A DNA stretch of 64,000 nt, taken from positions 11,319-75,318 of the forward strand of contig JAKADP010000004.1 in the NCBI GenBank assembly GCA_021820465.1. Direction: 5' to 3'. The notes beneath the pieces were generated by a model that did not search any database, had not been told where the DNA came from, and saw only the letters and a program-made list of their open reading frames with translations. Positions within the stretch are counted from its first letter, which is position 1. Each line of letters starts with the position of its first letter. The translations under genes were made by a program, and so were the position numbers. Of this stretch, positions 44,028 through 50,627 are shown piece by piece. Origin of the DNA: Bacillota bacterium. GTDB lineage: Bacteria; Bacillota; Sulfobacillia; Sulfobacillales; JAIMBI01.

Positions 44028-45814
44028 CCACGCGCGTGAGCAGCCGTCTTGGGGAAGTGGGCCGCACGGATTACTGCGGGCGGATTTCGCCCGCAGCGGT
44101 GGGCGCGACGGTCACGGTGGCAGGGTGGGTTCACCGCCGGCGGGACCATGGGGGCTTGATTTTCATTGACCTGCGGGATCGGACGGGGCTGGTGCAGGTG
44201 GTGGTGAGCCCCGATGCCGCAGAGGCCTTCGCAACCGCCGACGCCGTGCGTCCCGAGTGGGTGGTGTCGGCCACCGGGCCAGTCGCCGAGCGGCCAGAGG
44301 GCATGGCCAACCCGGATCTGGCGACTGGGGCCGTGGAGGTGCGGGCTACGCACCTCACCGTGTGGTCGCGGGCCGAGACGCCCCCGGTGTCCCCGGCAGA
44401 CGGCGCGGCCGTGGATGAGCGCGTGCGGCTGAAGCACCGATACCTCGATCTGCGCAGACCGGAGCTGCTCAAGAATTTTGTGCTGCGGGACCGAGTCGTG
44501 TTCGCGGTGCGGCGCTGGATGCACGCGCACGAGTTTTTGGATGTGGAGACGCCGACATTGGGGCGCAGCACGCCCGAGGGCGCCCGCGACTTCCTGGTGC
44601 CGAGCCGCCTGCAGCCGGGCCACGTCTACGCGTTGCCGCAGAGTCCGCAGGTGTGGAAGCAGCTGTTGATGGTGGGCGGCGTGGACCGGTATTACCAGAT
44701 TGTGAAGGTGTTTCGCGATGAGGCGCTCCGGTCGGACCGGCAGCCGGAGTTCACGCAGATCGACGTGGAAACCTCGTTCCTGAGCCAGAGCCAAATACTG
44801 GACCTGATGGAAGACATGGTTCGGAGCGTGTTTCAGGAGGCCTTGGGCGTGACGCTGCCTCCGTGGCCGCGCCTTACGCACGCCGAGGCGCTGGCGCAGT
44901 ATGGGACGGACAAGCCCGACCTGCGTGCCGGCCCTCCCCTCGTCGATCTGACGGCGGTTGGCCAGCAGGTCGGCGCGCTGGAGTTGCCCGAGGCGGCCAG
45001 CTGGGTCGGCATTGTTGTCGAGGACGCGGCACTGTCGCGCAAGCAGCTGGACGCGCTGGTGGAGCAGGCTCGCGCTTTGGGTGCGCCCGGGCTGTGGTGG
45101 ATTCGCCGGACGCCAGAGGGTGTGAGAACCAACGCGGGACGCGCGCTAGCTGACGGCGGCGCGGGCCGCTTGGCGGACGCCGCCGTCCTTGGCCGCGATG
45201 GGCTGCTGTTGGTGATGGCCGGCCCCATGGGCGTGGTGAACCGCCACGCGGGCGCCATGCGCCTGGCGGTGGCGGCGCAGCTGGGCCGCGCGGCCTCCGG
45301 ATTTCACTTTCTGTGGGTGACGGACTTTCCTCTATTTGAGTGGTCGGCGGACGAGGACCGCTGGACCTCGGCGCACCATCCGTTCACGATGCCGAACCCA
45401 AGCGATCTGGTGCTTTTGGCCACGGACCCCGGTGCGGCCCGCTCGCAAGCCTATGACGTGGTGCTCAATGGGGTAGAGTTGGCTTCGGGCAGCTTGCGGA
45501 TTTATGACCCCGACTTGCAGGCGCAGATATTTTCTGTGCTGGGGCTGACGCCAGCCGAGACTGCGAGCAAGTTCGGCTACCTTCTCGACGCGTTTCGCTT
45601 TGGGCCACCGCCGCACGGCGGCATCGCGTTTGGTCTGGACCGCCTGGTGATGCTCATGGCCGGCGCGGAAAGCCTCCGGGAGGTGATTGCCTTCCCGAAG
45701 ACACACACGGGCTCCGACCCGCTCATGGGGTCGCCGGCACCCGCCGATCCCGGCCAGTGGGCGGAACTGCGCCTCACCCCCTGGGGGCCCGATCTACCCC
45801 AGCGCTCCAGCTAA
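44024..45814 (+). CDS. aspS: aspartate--tRNA ligase
   Basis: OB anticodon-binding N-terminus (GWVHRRRDHGGLIFIDLRD), FRDEALRSDRQPEFTQID, and a C-terminal ...GGIAFGLDRLVMLM. Confidence 0.95.
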   Translation: MTTRVSSRLGEVGRTDYCGRISPAAVGATVTVAGWVHRRRDHGGLIFIDLRDRTGLVQVVVSPDAAEAFATADAVRPEWVVSATGPVAERPEGMANPDLATGAVEVRATHLTVWSRAETPPVSPADGAAVDERVRLKHRYLDLRRPELLKNFVLRDRVVFAVRRWMHAHEFLDVETPTLGRSTPEGARDFLVPSRLQPGHVYALPQSPQVWKQLLMVGGVDRYYQIVKVFRDEALRSDRQPEFTQIDVETSFLSQSQILDLMEDMVRSVFQEALGVTLPPWPRLTHAEALAQYGTDKPDLRAGPPLVDLTAVGQQVGALELPEAASWVGIVVEDAALSRKQLDALVEQARALGAPGLWWIRRTPEGVRTNAGRALADGGAGRLADAAVLGRDGLLLVMAGPMGVVNRHAGAMRLAVAAQLGRAASGFHFLWVTDFPLFEWSADEDRWTSAHHPFTMPNPSDLVLLATDPGAARSQAYDVVLNGVELASGSLRIYDPDLQAQIFSVLGLTPAETASKFGYLLDAFRFGPPPHGGIAFGLDRLVMLMAGAESLREVIAFPKTHTGSDPLMGSPAPADPGQWAELRLTPWGPDLPQRSS

Positions 45815-46986
45815 CCGCCAGCCACCGATCGGGCGACCCGCGCTTCCAGCTGGGCCAGCGGAAGAAAGCCGGAGTGGTGCCACAGGACCCGGCCGCCCGG
45901 GCTGGTGAGCACGAACCACGGCAGCCCCTGCACGCCGTAGCCGTCGGCCAGCCGGCCCGTGGTGTCCACGGCGACGGGGTAGGAAAGCGGGCGGCCGATT
46001 TGATGCAACAGCGTGGTTAGCGCCGTGGCGCTGGGCTCGGTCGGCACTTCGTCGACGGCGATGAGGCCAGGCCAGCCATGCGCGGCGGCGGCCGCGGCAT
46101 ACGCGTCCAGGGCCGTCAGCTCCTGGGCGAGGGGGGTAGTCTGGCTGAGCCAGCTGGCGAAAAATAGCACCAAATGAGCCTGACCCGGGCCCACAAGGAC
46201 AGGCGATCCGGCGCCGGTCGCGGAGGTCGTGGGCAGTGATGCGGGCGTGGTCGGCGCGGTGCCTCCCAGATAGTGATAGGACAGGCGGGCCGGGACCTTG
46301 GGTCTTCCGGGGAGCCATCGGCTAATGGCTTGGGCCAGAATCTGACCTTGCTGGGCCACACTGGCATATGCCATCTGGGTTTCAAAGAGGGTTTCCTCAC
46401 GGCCACGGCGGTTGATAATGTACACGGCAGGGGTGTGGTCGACGTGGCCGGCGACCACGGCGGCGTAAATGCCGTAGGCGTGCCAGACGCGGCGCAACTC
46501 ACGTAGAGAGCCTGTGAGAAATTGCCAGGAGTCCGTGAGGCCGTGCGCCGACGAGAAGCTCGCGATATCGGACACGGAGAGCGCCTCTGGATTGGCTACG
46601 ACCCCGACGAGCTGGACCCCCGACGCCGCGGGGCCGAGCAAATGTAGGGCATCCAGGAGGCTCATGGTCGTCAGCGGGCAAATCGTTGTACATCGGTCGT
46701 CGACGAACGCCAGGACGACAACCCGGCCGCGCCACTGGCGGAGCGCGGCCGGGCGGCCAAATTGGTTGACCAGTCGAAAGCCGGGCGCGCGCCGCCCTCC
46801 GAGGGGCGTGCCCGGATCCAAGTCGGGGTTGGTGGCCAAGGCCGAGAGCACCGGAGATGGGGCGGGTGTGGGAGTTGCCAGGCGGCTTCGACCCAGAAAA
46901 ATCCCCGCGACAAGCGCACCGGCGGCCGCCACCAGCGCAACGACAGCCATGGCGCGCCGGCCCGATCGTGAACGCCAAGGGTCCAT
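45811..46986 (-). CDS. membrane-anchored tandem thioredoxin-fold protein (SCO1/SenC-like CxxxC domain plus a Cys-less TlpA-like domain)
   Basis: Track ORF 45811..47433 trimmed to MDPWRS after an AAGGGGG SD. TM anchor, then FVDDRCTTICP. The second domain has FFASWLSQ where a CxxC is expected. Confidence 0.7.
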   Translation of the reverse strand: MDPWRSRSGRRAMAVVALVAAAGALVAGIFLGRSRLATPTPAPSPVLSALATNPDLDPGTPLGGRRAPGFRLVNQFGRPAALRQWRGRVVVLAFVDDRCTTICPLTTMSLLDALHLLGPAASGVQLVGVVANPEALSVSDIASFSSAHGLTDSWQFLTGSLRELRRVWHAYGIYAAVVAGHVDHTPAVYIINRRGREETLFETQMAYASVAQQGQILAQAISRWLPGRPKVPARLSYHYLGGTAPTTPASLPTTSATGAGSPVLVGPGQAHLVLFFASWLSQTTPLAQELTALDAYAAAAAAHGWPGLIAVDEVPTEPSATALTTLLHQIGRPLSYPVAVDTTGRLADGYGVQGLPWFVLTSPGGRVLWHHSGFLPLAQLEARVARSVAGG

Positions 46987-47201
46987 GGGTGCCCCCTTAC
47001 GAGGTGGGACTCGGAACATAGGCCGAGGGACGCTGATGAGGCGACCGTAAACCCGGCGGGATCTGCTTGTCAATCGGGGGCCGCGGTTTGTGCCCGCGGC
47101 AGGGCCCTGAGCCGAGCGACGTGGGGGGCGACCGCTGGCCAGTGAGTGTGTGGATTGCCGTTCATCCCCCGAGCCAGCGCCGGTTGGCGGCGGGCTGGGC
47201 C

Positions 47202-47467
47202 CTACGGTGGAGGCTCGCCGGCGCCCAGCAGCCCAAGGGCGTCGTCGATGCTGTCGGCGACCACGAGTGGGAGGGCCAGAGCCGCGAGGTTGTCGGCGGG
47301 CAGCGCGGCGAGGCGCGACCGGACGGGCGGGGGCGCGCACCCAAAGCACTGTGCCAGCTGGATTGTCAGCAGACGGCGCTGGCCTTCCTCGCGCCCTGCC
47401 TCGCGACCTGCCTGGGGACCCCGGTCTTCGCACGGGTGAGCTCGCGCAACACCGGACTCAACTCCAA
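47202..47467 (-). pseudogene. frameshifted stand-alone copy of the Rpn C-terminal (DUF4351-like) module
   Basis: About 265 nt highly similar to 47496-47850. It starts at TTG AGT CCG, homologous to the internal ATG AGT CCG of the full gene. A 4-nt deletion after ...ACCCGTG shifts the frame. Only 2 REEG-type units. Confidence 0.7.
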
Positions 47468-47495
47468 TACCCCTTTTGGCGGAGTTTAAGGGGTC

Positions 47496-48491
47496 CTACA
47501 GTGATGGCTCGCCGCCGCCCAGCAGCCCAAGGACGTCGTCGATACTGTCGGCGACCACGAGTGGGAGGGCCAGAGCCGCGAGCTTGTCAGCCGGCAGCGC
47601 GGCGAGGCGCGACCGGACGGCCGGGGGCACGCACCCAAAGCGCTGTGCCAGCTGGATTTCCAGCAGACGGCGCTGGCCCTCCTCGCGACCTTCCTCGCGA
47701 CCTTCCTCGCGGCCTTCCTCGCGGCCTTCTTCGCGGCCTTCTTCGCGGCCTTCTTCGCGCCCTTCCTCGCGACCTGCCTGGCGACCCCGGTCTTCGGCTT
47801 CACGGGTGAGCTCGCGCAGCAGCGGACTCATCTTCAACACCTCCATCACGTAGTTTACGTCGGGGGCGGACAAAAAGGGAGCGGTGAGGGCCAGCACCAC
47901 GGCCGCTGCTGACAAGCCCGACTGCCGGGGAAGCGCGACGGCCGTCTCGACCGCCCAAGCCGCCCGGGCGGATTGCGTGGCCTGTGGGTGCCGCATGAAG
48001 GGCCAGTAGGCCAGATCCAACAGGTCCGGCGGGCTCCAGGCGGACCCGTGGGCCACCAGATCCTTCAGGTGCTGCTCTACTTTCACTCCGTCCCGCGAGC
48101 CGATGAGGACGTTCTCCACGGCAAACGCAATGCTGCCAAGGTCGAGTGTGCGATCGGCCGGCTGGCGCGCCGTGAGGTACACCACAGCCACTTGGACCGG
48201 AGCCCGGTGAGTGATGGCCAAGGCGGTCGCGTAGCCGAGGAACCGGTATAGGTCTGGCTCGGCCGTGGATTGGAACTCCAAGTGCAGCAGCCGGCCATCC
48301 TGAGTGCGAAAAACGGCGTCGACGAGAGATTCGTGGGCCACGACGTGCGGAACGTTGGACGGCAGGGCTTCCACAATCGGAGGACTGTCGATGCCGTACC
48401 ATCCCACGGCTGCATCCGCCAAGACCCGCACCAGCTCCTTTTGGGCGATGTCTCGGGACTGGCGGTTCAGAGAATTCCTGGGCTCGTCCAT
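47496..48491 (-). CDS. Rpn-family (YhgA-like, PD-(D/E)XK) recombination-promoting nuclease / putative transposase with DUF4351-like C-terminus
   Basis: …DAVFRTQDGRLLHLEFQS… nuclease core, and a C-terminal ...QRRLLEIQLAQRFG...LPADKLAALAL... module. ATG 48491 follows GGGAGG. The track ORF starts at TTG 48521. Confidence 0.8.
   Translation of the reverse strand: MDEPRNSLNRQSRDIAQKELVRVLADAAVGWYGIDSPPIVEALPSNVPHVVAHESLVDAVFRTQDGRLLHLEFQSTAEPDLYRFLGYATALAITHRAPVQVAVVYLTARQPADRTLDLGSIAFAVENVLIGSRDGVKVEQHLKDLVAHGSAWSPPDLLDLAYWPFMRHPQATQSARAAWAVETAVALPRQSGLSAAAVVLALTAPFLSAPDVNYVMEVLKMSPLLRELTREAEDRGRQAGREEGREEGREEGREEGREEGREEGREEGREEGQRRLLEIQLAQRFGCVPPAVRSRLAALPADKLAALALPLVVADSIDDVLGLLGGGEPSL
47676..47783. 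repeat. in-frame 12-bp tandem repeat, about 9 units, encoding (REEG)8 in the Rpn linker
   Basis: Read directly: units of CTTCCTCGCGRC with small variations. The downstream pseudogene copy has only about 2 units. Confidence 0.95.
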
Positions 48492-48634
48492 ATCCGCGCC
48501 TCCCGCCAGCTGCCGGTTCAATCTGGCATTCTAATCATAGCATGAAATATGAGGGTTAGCGGAATAGTGGGGTGTATTCATGGCTTAAAGTTTCATCGAC
48601 GCGCGGAGCTCCGGGTGCCAGCCTCAGTGTGTCC

Positions 48635-48703: not shown

Positions 48704-49279
48704 ATGGCCAAGGGCAGCCGCACGGACGTGGAACAGGAGGTGGGCGCCTGGGTAGCAGAGTATGGGGACCGCCTGGTGCACTACGCCTGGGTGCTGGTGC
48801 GAGACCCGCAGGAGGCCCAGGACGTGGCGCAGGAGGCGTTCCTTCGGCTGTATCGCTGGCGCGCGGGAGCCGGGGCGTCCCGGCCGGTGACCCCTGCCCT
48901 TCTGTACCGCATTACCCAGCGCTTGGCCCTGGACCATCTCCGCCGCCCCACCCGTCCGCCGTCTCTGGACGAAACGGCCACGGATGGGGACTACGCGTGG
49001 GAGTCAGAGGTCGTGGCCCGGCTGGATGTGGAGGCGGTGCTCGCGCAGCTGTCGTGGTCGGACCGCGCGGCCATCTGGCTGTTCTACTTTGATGGCTGGA
49101 CGACGGAGGACATCGCCGGACATCTGGGGGTGACCCGCGCGAATGTGCGAGGTCGGCTGTTCCGCGCGCGCCAGCGCTTCCTGAAAGCCTGGACGGCCCG
49201 GGATGGGCGCGAGGGGAGTGGAGGCGCAGGGCAGGGCGCAGGAGCGGCGCGGAAGGGACAGGTGACTGATGGACGATAA
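48704..49279 (+). CDS. ECF (group 4) RNA polymerase sigma factor
   Basis: Trimmed to MAKGSR after GGGAGGG. Region 2 has …DVAQEAFLRLYR… and region 4 has …TEDIAGHLGVTRANVRGRLFRARQRF…. Confidence 0.85.
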   Translation: MAKGSRTDVEQEVGAWVAEYGDRLVHYAWVLVRDPQEAQDVAQEAFLRLYRWRAGAGASRPVTPALLYRITQRLALDHLRRPTRPPSLDETATDGDYAWESEVVARLDVEAVLAQLSWSDRAAIWLFYFDGWTTEDIAGHLGVTRANVRGRLFRARQRFLKAWTARDGREGSGGAGQGAGAARKGQVTDGR

Positions 49280-50627
49280 GCCGCATGGCCGTACCGGGGT
49301 GTTGCGGGGAGACGAGGTATTGCGGGAAGGGATGGCCGTCGGCCCCCGGCCAGCGCTCACATTTGACCGCGACCGCTGGGAGGCGGGTGCCGCGGCCCGT
49401 GCCGGCGCACCTCTCGGCCGGAGCGTCAACTGGATGGTCGGAGCGGCGGTGGCCGCCACTGCCGCGATGACCGCGCCGGCCTGGCTGCACTCTGCCCATG
49501 TCATTGGACCGGTGCCGCCCCACGTGGTGGAGTCCCGCTTGGGAGAGATGCGGGCTCCCATCGGCCTGGAACACCTGTGGATGGCGTCTGCGATGAGGGG
49601 CTGGGCGCTAGGTGGTCCGGGCGCCATCTTGATTACGGCCGACGGCGGCCGCCGCTGGCAGAATGTGTTGCCCCCCCAGGCGCCCGCCGTGGGTGCCTTC
49701 GCCGTGCGCTCATCGCGCGACGCGTGGTGGGCGGCGGCCAATCGTGCGGGTGTGCGCATCTACCACACTCAGAATGCCGGGCGGTCGTGGGCGTGGACCG
49801 AGCTGGCCGGCCCTCCGTTTCCGGCCGGCTGGCGCCTCTCGCGACACGCCCTCGCGCTGGGGCCCCGGGGAACGGCGTACCTGCTGGTGGCGCCCAACTG
49901 GTATGGCAAGGCGGGGTCTCCGCCGGCCGGGCCGGACACCCTCTGGGCCACCCACGACAGCGGTGCAACGTGGACGCCCCGCGTCCTGTCGGGGTTTCCG
50001 GGGGGCGTGGAGGATGCGGGCCGCCTCTACACGGGTGCGGGCGGTGTGCTGTTCTTGGAAAGTGCCGGGCATCATCACGTCTGGTGGTCGTCGGATGGCG
50101 GGCAGCACTGGACGCCCGTGGCCATCCGCGGTGTCCCGGCGGGGGCCCGGCTGGTGGGAGAGCCGGTCTTCTTCGGGCGGGGACGCCACGCGCCAGGGTT
50201 ATGGCTCGCGTCGAAGGGCGGCCCGGGGCTCCCGCTGGGCCAGGACACGACCGATGTTTTGGCGAGCAGTACCGGGGGGGCATCGTGGATGGCTGCCATG
50301 ACCGTGCAGGGATTCAGCCCCGTGCTGGCGGCGGCGTCGCCCAACCAGTGGACCGGCGCCGCCGCTGACCCCATGACGCGTGGCACGTCCGGACTCCCTG
50401 GTCAGTATTTTGGGGCGTCGCACGCCCGTGCCGGGGTTGGCCAGTGGGTACGGACGCTGGTTCCGCGTCTGTCCTCCGCCGCGCACATTGGAGAGCTCGA
50501 CTTTTTGAATCGGCAAGACCAGTGGGTGCTGGTGGATGTGGGAGGGACCAGTGAATTGTGGGCGTCCACGGATGGTGGGCGCGAGTGGTCTGAACTATCG
50601 TCCGGCGTCAACCTCCAAGCCCCCTGA
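49269..50627 (+). CDS. putative anti-sigma factor: single-pass membrane protein with an extracytoplasmic BNR/Ycf48-like beta-propeller
   Basis: Overlaps the sigma gene by 11 nt. About 55 aa cytoplasmic, one TM, then repeated S/T-x-D/N-x-G-x-x-W boxes (TADGGRRW, TQNAGRSW, THDSGATW, SSDGGQHW, STDGGREW). Confidence 0.6.
   Translation: MDDKPHGRTGVLRGDEVLREGMAVGPRPALTFDRDRWEAGAAARAGAPLGRSVNWMVGAAVAATAAMTAPAWLHSAHVIGPVPPHVVESRLGEMRAPIGLEHLWMASAMRGWALGGPGAILITADGGRRWQNVLPPQAPAVGAFAVRSSRDAWWAAANRAGVRIYHTQNAGRSWAWTELAGPPFPAGWRLSRHALALGPRGTAYLLVAPNWYGKAGSPPAGPDTLWATHDSGATWTPRVLSGFPGGVEDAGRLYTGAGGVLFLESAGHHHVWWSSDGGQHWTPVAIRGVPAGARLVGEPVFFGRGRHAPGLWLASKGGPGLPLGQDTTDVLASSTGGASWMAAMTVQGFSPVLAAASPNQWTGAAADPMTRGTSGLPGQYFGASHARAGVGQWVRTLVPRLSSAAHIGELDFLNRQDQWVLVDVGGTSELWASTDGGREWSELSSGVNLQAP

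Follow-up and report, generated by a model that had tools for sequence, protein, structure and literature searches.

A divergent Rpn-type nuclease gene in a high-GC Bacillota carries a conserved internal start that would encode an RpnS-like small protein

The rpn-like gene described here lies on the minus strand of a 64,000-nt window from the genome of a Bacillota bacterium (contig JAKADP010000004.1, positions 11,319 to 75,318), and all coordinates refer to that window, which is the whole stretch of DNA that was analysed. The best overall explanation of the gene is that it is a divergent RpnL/RpnS-type gene, from which two proteins would be made in one reading frame, a full-length nuclease (L) and a C-terminal small protein (S) acting as the antitoxin of L; we regard this explanation as probable, and an internal start very probably yields the tail as a small protein in its own right, to judge from the sequence comparisons below. 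The RpnA, RpnB, RpnC and RpnE proteins of Escherichia coli and the plasmid-borne RpnP2 are RpnL/RpnS intragenic toxin-antitoxin systems (Zhong et al., PNAS 2023, PMC10400941). The principle was thus published in 2023, and the window gene is an expected further example that would not surprise a specialist. The translation signals, their synonymous conservation, the domain and family ties, the repeat variation and the duplication of the S unit were all computed in the present analysis.

The positions of the features are collected in Table 1. The ATG taken as the start of L is the one that fits the homologues, the first possible TTG of the open reading frame (ORF) being at 48521, and the N-terminus that it gives matches that of the 76%-identical orthologue at locus L094 (MDVPEGFMNRQSRDIAQK). 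An alternative L start, AAGGAG-CTG-GTG at 48440-48429, was ruled out, with a spacing of 3 nt and with the conserved residues D14 and K18 lying upstream of it. The host ORF and the 111-aa ORF share the stop codon TAG at 47498-47496, the spacer between the internal Shine-Dalgarno (SD) sequence and the internal ATG is TTGAAG, and the 111-aa product would read MSPLLRELTREAEDRGRQAG(REEG)8QRRLLEIQLAQRFG...GGGEPSL. A preliminary description of this DNA had placed the SD at 47844-47838 and the ATG at 47831-47829 with a 6-nt gap, all of which proved exact on re-reading, and it had predicted that the product would be exactly the C-terminal module, which agrees with a translation consisting of the repeat helix and DUF4351. 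Its statement that the genes of the window consistently use strong GGAGG-type SDs holds loosely: of 36 starts chosen crudely, 21 had an SD core of 5 nt or more.

Taken within the window alone, the internal site is no more than chance gives. The gene set of the window comprised 36 crude calls made from the contrast in GC content between third and second codon positions (GC3/GC2), and in these only one of 210 internal in-frame ATG codons, that of Met221, follows an SD core of 7 nt or more. Such a core was found at 47 of 11,693 internal codon positions, which leads one to expect about 0.8 such ATG sites in a window of this composition. That GGAGG and ATG meet by accident in GC-rich coding DNA, with no biological meaning, would be compatible with these figures, yet it is extremely improbable as an explanation, since at least 41 homologues, belonging to several genera, keep the site, as do canonical Rpn genes; the significance of the internal start comes from its conservation in relatives and not from the window statistics.

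That conservation was assessed by retrieving 70 genomic loci and several metagenomic loci, aligning 60 complete homologues and reading their DNA at the Met221 column. The Bacillota-type clade comprised 41 sequences, 25-40% identical to the query, with members from Alicyclobacillus, Sulfobacillus, Desulfosporosinus, Heliophilum, Caloramator, Bacillus and many metagenome-assembled genomes (MAGs). At the Met221 column 38 of the 41 have ATG and three have GTG, five further members of a Val-type sub-clade all use GTG with AAGGAG, AGGGAG or GAGGAG 9-10 nt upstream, and Val at the start column was encoded by GTG at all eight sites examined. Since duplexfold energies with a long anti-SD were too noisy for ranking sites, the contiguous core length with a shorter anti-SD was used instead. 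An SD core of 6 nt or more stood at the proper distance in 76% of the 41 sequences, against 22% when the eight upstream codons were resampled synonymously with the codon usage of each gene (1000 rounds; maximum 39%, none reaching 76%), a statistic whose significance is somewhat overstated by the shared ancestry of the 41 homologues. The background frequency of such cores in the same genes was 2.9% at other codon positions and 2.8% at other in-frame ATG or GTG codons. At single synonymous sites, Glu at -4, whose codon lies within the SD, is encoded by GAG every time (30 of 30; the overall GAG:GAA count of these genes is 663:613), and codon -5 ends in a wobble G in 37 of the 41 sequences. The signal also extends beyond this clade, as in the cyanobacterial branch, where the Met lies two codons earlier with GGGAGG-type sequences before it, and in two canonical proteobacterial Rpn genes carrying both PF04754 and DUF4351, which have AAGAGGTGaagtcgATG and CAGGAGGcgaacaccATG at the equivalent position. 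Among the nearer loci, the L094 orthologue retains the start signal CAGGAGGttttgaacATG at a synonymous divergence (dS) of about 1.06, and the loci L001 and L087 retain ACAGGAGGTGttgcggATG. The rpnA gene of E. coli has AAGGAGagtttaATG at the equivalent internal site, where mutating the internal ribosome-binding site (RBS) and start abolished expression of RpnA-S (PMC10400941).

The synonymous bias is strong evidence of selection on the SD-plus-start signal beyond what the peptide Glu-Val-Leu-Lys-Met requires, because synonymous sites are saturated at these divergences, and even the closest orthologue has a dS of about 1.06. Orthologues and distant homologues therefore conserve the SD and ATG more than the coding of Met-Glu-Val demands, which the preliminary description had proposed as a check. 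A reading in which the SD-like sequence and Met do not serve initiation, and are kept by constraint on the protein where two helices join (E-V-L-K/R-M) or as an SD-like pause site for ribosomes between domains, would draw on the location of M221 at the junction of predicted helices 209-220 and 223-285, on the conservation of the amino-acid motif, where Glu-Val coding alone gives some likeness to an SD, and on the local RNA fold at the internal start, which is unremarkable (z=0.08), with the SD partly paired and no sign that accessibility has been selected. We consider it very unlikely, for a peptide constraint does not call for the GAG and wobble-G bias or for GTG at every Val site, a pause site would need no start codon at a fixed spacing of 5-10 nt, the duplicated stand-alone S genes described below have no start signals other than this SD and ATG, and the equivalent site in E. 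coli is an experimentally proven start (PMC10400941).

Table 1. Positions and supporting observations for the features of the rpn-like locus within the window.
Feature	Position	Strand	Supporting observation
RpnL-like gene, full length, 331 aa + stop	47496..48491	-	ATG at 48491, GGGAGG 8 nt upstream
Internal Shine-Dalgarno GGAGGTG	47838..47844	-	within Met-Glu-Val codons ATG GAG GTG (47846-47838)
Internal in-frame start ATG (Met221)	47829..47831	-	aligned column ATG/GTG in homologues
Putative RpnS-like small ORF, 111 aa + stop, in the L frame	47496..47831	-	translation
A-rich element G-TAAACT (rare Val codon GTA, then AAC T)	47852..47858	-	8-14 nt upstream of the internal SD
PD-(D/E)xK-type core motif D58...H70-L-E72-F-Q74 (VDAVF...LHLEFQS)	48270..48320	-	alignment of 34 homologues
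12-nt tandem repeat array, (REEG)8 + leading RQAG	47680..47786	-	TRF: 8.9 copies, 92% matches
DUF4351 (PF14261), aa 266-318	47538..47696	-	Pfam E=7.5e-7, 29.6 bits vs cut-off 25
Decayed tandem S duplicate (psi-rpnSs)	47202..47490	-	DNA alignment; remnants of upstream element and SD; TAG 47204-47202

Duplicates of the S unit were observed in the window and in the closest orthologous locus. The copy downstream of the window gene is about 93% identical to its parent outside indels (47461-47202) and exhibits several defects, namely ATG changed to TTG (47461-47459), GGAGGTG changed to GG-GGTA, a 4-nt deletion after CACCCGTG, and only two repeats left. The frame from the TTG reaches a stop after 31 codons, the two halves of the copy are found by tblastn in different frames, and its DUF4351 is recovered only in the shifted frame (E=1.7e-4), where no ATG, GTG or TTG lies upstream of the domain; the copy is a pseudogene in which the start and the frame are gone and six repeats are missing. 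The preliminary description was correct about this decayed copy and its TTG in place of ATG, but it had put the boundary of the unit at the start codon, whereas the homology begins about 28 nt (window) or 33-55 nt (L094) upstream of it and includes the SD. Because the homology begins upstream of the start codon, the duplicated unit is, on the alignments, the SD together with the ORF.

At L094, the L gene (1027-1944) encodes a 305-aa protein with three REEG repeats, whose ratio of nonsynonymous to synonymous divergence (dN/dS) to the window protein is 0.15 in both halves, and immediately upstream of it stand two intact stand-alone S genes (160-405 and 529-762; 81 and 77 aa), each beginning with MSPLLRELTRDAEDRG at the homologous Met and each preceded by its own copy of the SD (CAGGAGGttttgaacATG). 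The first of them, S1, differs from the S borne by L with a dS of 0.20 and a dN of 0.055 (dN/dS ~0.27), which, though the sites are few, suggests purifying selection after the duplication. The S copies are most similar to their own parents, with identities of 93% in the window and 89-95% at L094, against 70-76% across the two lineages. The three S units of L094 all differ in repeat number, and by the published rule the stand-alone copies would be non-cognate for the adjacent L. The stops of these three units (395-435, 752-782 and 1935-1963) lie within 10-nt tandem repeats (TCAAGGTTAG four and three times, TCAAGGCTAG three times), which could be a slippage or recombination hotspot at the 3' edge of the duplicated unit; such a 10-nt repeat at the stop codon is absent from the window.

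In two further loci the L frame is broken while the S frame is intact. L087 (2501-3501) has a frameshift in L just before the internal start, and its S is called as a separate 115-aa DUF4351 gene that begins at the homologous Met, and in L001 (3846-4834) the frameshift in L falls near codon 55, again with an intact S ORF. Both loci are syntenic, with nitroreductase and ABC ATPase genes upstream and secG and RNase R genes downstream, and assembly errors are unlikely because the same frameshifted sequences recur on 13 contigs (L001) and seven contigs (L087). The dN/dS of about 0.15-0.2 is alike in both halves of the two genes, which indicates that the frameshifts are recent and does not discriminate on whether S outlives L. 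With the stand-alone genes of L094, the intact S of L087 and the many small homologues of 73-150 aa, S behaves as an independent unit in these comparisons.

The C-terminal module that S would comprise shows the organization described for RpnS proteins. Pfam places DUF4351 above its threshold in L and in the 111-aa product alike, which bears out the domain call made earlier, and a search with the 111-aa query returned 216 homologues at E<=1e-5, mostly stand-alone proteins. The RQAG and REEG repeats start at residues 17 and 21 of S, i.e. 16-20 residues past the internal Met, and their number varies from eight in the window L to two in its pseudogene copy, three in the L of L094, two and one in its S1 and S2, nine in L001 and ten in L087. 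Variation in repeat number among relatives is a hallmark of RpnS, and the repeats of RpnS lie in a long first helix that forms the dimer interface (PMC10400941). In the AlphaFold2 (AF2) model of S, with a predicted local distance difference test (pLDDT) score of 92.2, one helix runs straight through the repeats from residue 3 to 65 and is followed by three short helices, and in the model of L helix 223-285 is likewise unbroken through the repeats and begins two residues past Met221, so that the modelled repeat helix matches the published layout. The hallmarks published for Rpn genes are thus present here, including four-residue repeats shortly after the internal Met, their variable number and neighbouring stand-alone S copies.

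The N-terminal half was assigned to the Rpn nucleases by indirect means. PF04754 is the Transposase_31/YhgA-like family of Pfam, and TIGR01784 is the NCBIfam model 'Rpn family recombination-promoting nuclease/putative transposase'. Homologues of the full-length protein numbered 838 at E<=1e-3, the closest relatives being Thermaerobacter MAGs, and relatives bear the database names 'Rpn family recombination-promoting nuclease' or 'predicted transposase YdaD'; a metagenome scan with the single protein gave distant or C-terminal matches only. In the alignment of 34 homologues, the residues D58, H70 and E72 of the motif VDxxF...LHLEFQS are invariant and Q74 is found in at least 90%. An N-terminal profile of 41 sequences aligned by hhalign with 13 PF04754-bearing proteins at 93.4% probability (E 2.4e-7, 96 columns), the alignment spanning the catalytic core and pairing the window motif with the 'LLEFQS' of those proteins, and it is on this alignment that the equivalence of the catalytic residues with the Rpn family rests. 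TIGR01784 was matched by 28 of the 34 homologues (those at E<=1e-13 to the query; best 2.5e-15), the RpnA equivalog model by three, and several homologues carry the Pfam domain HTH_Rpn_C, where HTH stands for helix-turn-helix. The full-length AF2 model has a mean pLDDT of 86.6 and an alpha/beta core, whose top Foldseek matches in the PDB were EndoMS/NucS, McrC, the Cas4-like ACE1 and restriction enzymes, with weak E values (~1e-2; probability up to 1.0). From this profile-profile and transitive evidence the window gene is a divergent Rpn (YhgA-like, COG5464) PD-(D/E)xK nuclease; the family placement proposed earlier therefore stands through hhalign and through relatives matching TIGR01784, and not through a direct match to a hidden Markov model (HMM). 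Weak matches to FliH and Yae1_N fell below their own cut-offs and were dismissed as low-complexity matches to the REEG repeats.

Comparison with E. coli Rpn genes revealed a shared plan, with an N-terminal PD-(D/E)xK domain whose core is D...ExQ, an SD and ATG that lie in frame within the gene shortly before the C-terminal module (AAGGAGagtttaATG in rpnA, GGAGGTGttgaagATG in the window), and four-residue repeats 8-20 residues past the internal Met, in a long helix, variable in number and accompanied by S copies beside the gene. The differences are that the N-terminal domain of the window protein is too divergent for a direct match to PF04754 or TIGR01784, that its tail is a DUF4351, larger than the 49-aa HTH-like bundle of RpnA-S (7th0) and built of a long helix and three short helices, that its repeats are pure REEG with no hydrophobic position, that an internal promoter was not detected in it, and that its host is a high-GC member of the Bacillota. 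In E. coli, ypaA/rpnE-Ss and rpnC-Ss are stand-alone RpnS genes downstream of rpn genes, annotated as DUF4351 in some species (PMC10400941), and the window resembles them in having a tandem S duplicate beside its parent, with copies that cluster with their own parents; unlike them, the window copy is a pseudogene (start lost, frameshifted, two repeats against eight) and the copies of L094 lie upstream of L. Closer in sequence are the Bacillota Rpn-like proteins with HTH_Rpn_C (PF27070), from Alicyclobacillus and from Desulfofarcimen acetoxidans (Dtox_0684 and Dtox_3455), which share the N-terminal subfamily (25-35% identity, E 1e-20 to 1e-34), the 'EVL(K/R)M(T/S)' internal start with an SD and the REEG-type repeats, whereas they end in a short HTH-type tail after the repeats and have no DUF4351. 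A Gram-positive parallel is Clostridioides difficile, for which RpnS was seen in E. coli and disappeared once the RBS and internal translation initiation site were mutated (PMC10400941); its rpn gene also has an internal RBS and start for a separate S, but it is low in GC and of a different subfamily, and it is likened here by description and not by sequence.

If the E. coli mechanism applies, ribosomes starting at ATG 48491 would produce the 331-aa L, consisting of the nuclease domain, helical linkers, the long (REEG)8 helix and the DUF4351 helical bundle, while the internal GGAGGTG would recruit ribosomes to the ATG at 47831 and give the 111-aa S, made up of the repeat helix and DUF4351. L would dimerise through its repeat helix, and S, by analogy with RpnA, RpnB, RpnC, RpnE and RpnP2 of E. 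coli (PMC10400941), would pair with the identical repeat helix of L and hold the nuclease inactive as a dominant-negative antitoxin. The repeat number would set the register and thereby decide which S fits which L, and a trigger, phage infection in the E. coli systems, would release L. The segment 47490-47202 is a tandem duplicate of the S unit, comparable to ypaA/rpnSs of E. coli, that has since decayed. We infer from the E. coli work that initiation would occur at 47831, that L would be toxic, that S would neutralise it and that the pair may act in phage defence.

Several observations weigh against this antitoxin interpretation, beyond the overstatement of the resampling statistics by common descent noted above. 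In direct searches the window protein had no match to PF04754 in Pfam at E<=1, reached only E=0.11 and 12.3 bits with TIGR01784 (cut-off 52.1) over aa 53-90, and had no match in PADLOC. The structural model of S gave no meaningful Foldseek match in the PDB and none to the RpnA-S structure 7th0, to which the sequence similarity of the S family is weak (family profile E=0.014, hhalign 69%). REEG repeats also lack the hydrophobic residue described as typical of Rpn repeats, and a consensus scan found no sigma-70-like internal promoter in the window gene, internal promoters being reported for E. coli rpn genes. Finally, the window locus is not a defence island, its neighbours being housekeeping genes.

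Some of these points would suit an S that is made from the internal start and whose main role is other than antitoxin, as a DNA-binding or autoregulatory partner or as a required positive subunit of the nuclease. Cas11d offers a parallel for such a positive subunit, in its relation to Cas10d. The comparative data support the expression signals and leave function to analogy, the DUF4351 tail differs from the HTH-type tail of RpnA-S and does not match the fold of 7th0, the surrounding housekeeping genes do not point to defence, and the S copies of L094, with two repeats and one beside an L with three, would not neutralise it by the published rule. We nevertheless judge such a role unlikely, given that S blocked toxicity or induction of the SOS response in every Rpn system tested (RpnA, B, C and P2), that separately encoded RpnS proteins are annotated as DUF4351 and equated with DUF4351 proteins in that study (PMC10400941), and that the architecture is alike in every testable respect. 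The intragenic antitoxin, an RpnS-like internal product as first suggested in the preliminary description, therefore remains the preferred reading and is supported as far as sequence goes, through the conserved SD and start and the Rpn hallmarks.

A further idea concerns the arrays of S units with differing repeat numbers (two, one and then an L with three at L094; an L with eight and then a decayed two-repeat copy in the window), which, instead of being redundant antitoxins, might be silent or semi-independent cassettes that recombine with L to reset its repeat number and with it the pairing specificity, or whose mismatched S titrates or regulates the cognate pair. This proposal is speculative and we think it doubtful; if it were true, the upstream element (GTAAAC/AT plus SD) in each duplicate would make every cassette self-expressing. 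That element, G-TAAACT in the window, is present in every duplicated S unit and was found to be kept in the window, in the three units of L094 (as TAAAAT, and as TACAAT in S1), in L001 and in L087 despite a dS of about 1, and the codon GTA that it contains makes up 3.8% of the Val codons of the window. The element might act as a -10 box or as an A-rich enhancer of translation; neither TAAACT nor TAAAAT was found to have a -35 partner. A terminator-like hairpin with a T-run (GTGGTGCTGGCCCTCACCGC TCCCTTTTTG) lies within the coding sequence at 47900-47881 on the minus strand, about 40 nt upstream of the internal SD, where the count of hairpins is within chance expectation for the region; the TTTTTG run is kept in three of four close relatives.

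The gene is surrounded by hisS, aspS, a SCO1/SenC-like gene, a divergent extracytoplasmic function (ECF) sigma factor gene with a BNR-repeat protein gene, and a gene for a small membrane protein of the holin-4 superfamily. Related loci occupy quite different contexts, which is consistent with the mobility reported for rpn genes. The divergent ECF-type sigma factor (Sigma70_r2/r4_2) and its companion occupy 48704-50627 on the plus strand, the end of the sigma factor gene overlapping the start of the gene for a 452-aa BNR/Sortilin-like repeat protein (49269-50627), which is possibly an anti-sigma factor or a regulated partner of the sigma factor; a sigma-70-family gene also lies directly upstream of the family member at locus L006, which may be coincidence. 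On the minus strand, a 540-aa ORF at 45811-47433 crosses the decayed S copy in a third frame, of which the C-terminal 391 aa alone look genuine (ATG 46986; matches to SCO1/SenC and AhpC/TSA), and its N-terminal extension is a long-ORF artefact of DNA with 68% GC. At locus L097 a HicB-HicA toxin-antitoxin pair (1150-1398) directly follows an Alicyclobacillus-type family member, a hint of toxin-antitoxin or defence clustering for some members of the subfamily, though not in the window.

The reading of this gene as an RpnL/RpnS-type gene would bring a divergent Rpn subfamily of thermophilic, high-GC Bacillota, one missed by standard HMMs and defence-system finders, under the gene-within-gene antitoxin design. 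The comparisons also give purely computational evidence of selection on the internal start, in different genera and with both types of C-terminal module. Annotation pipelines should call the nested 111-aa ORF, and the synonymous-site test may be used for finding other nested regulators.

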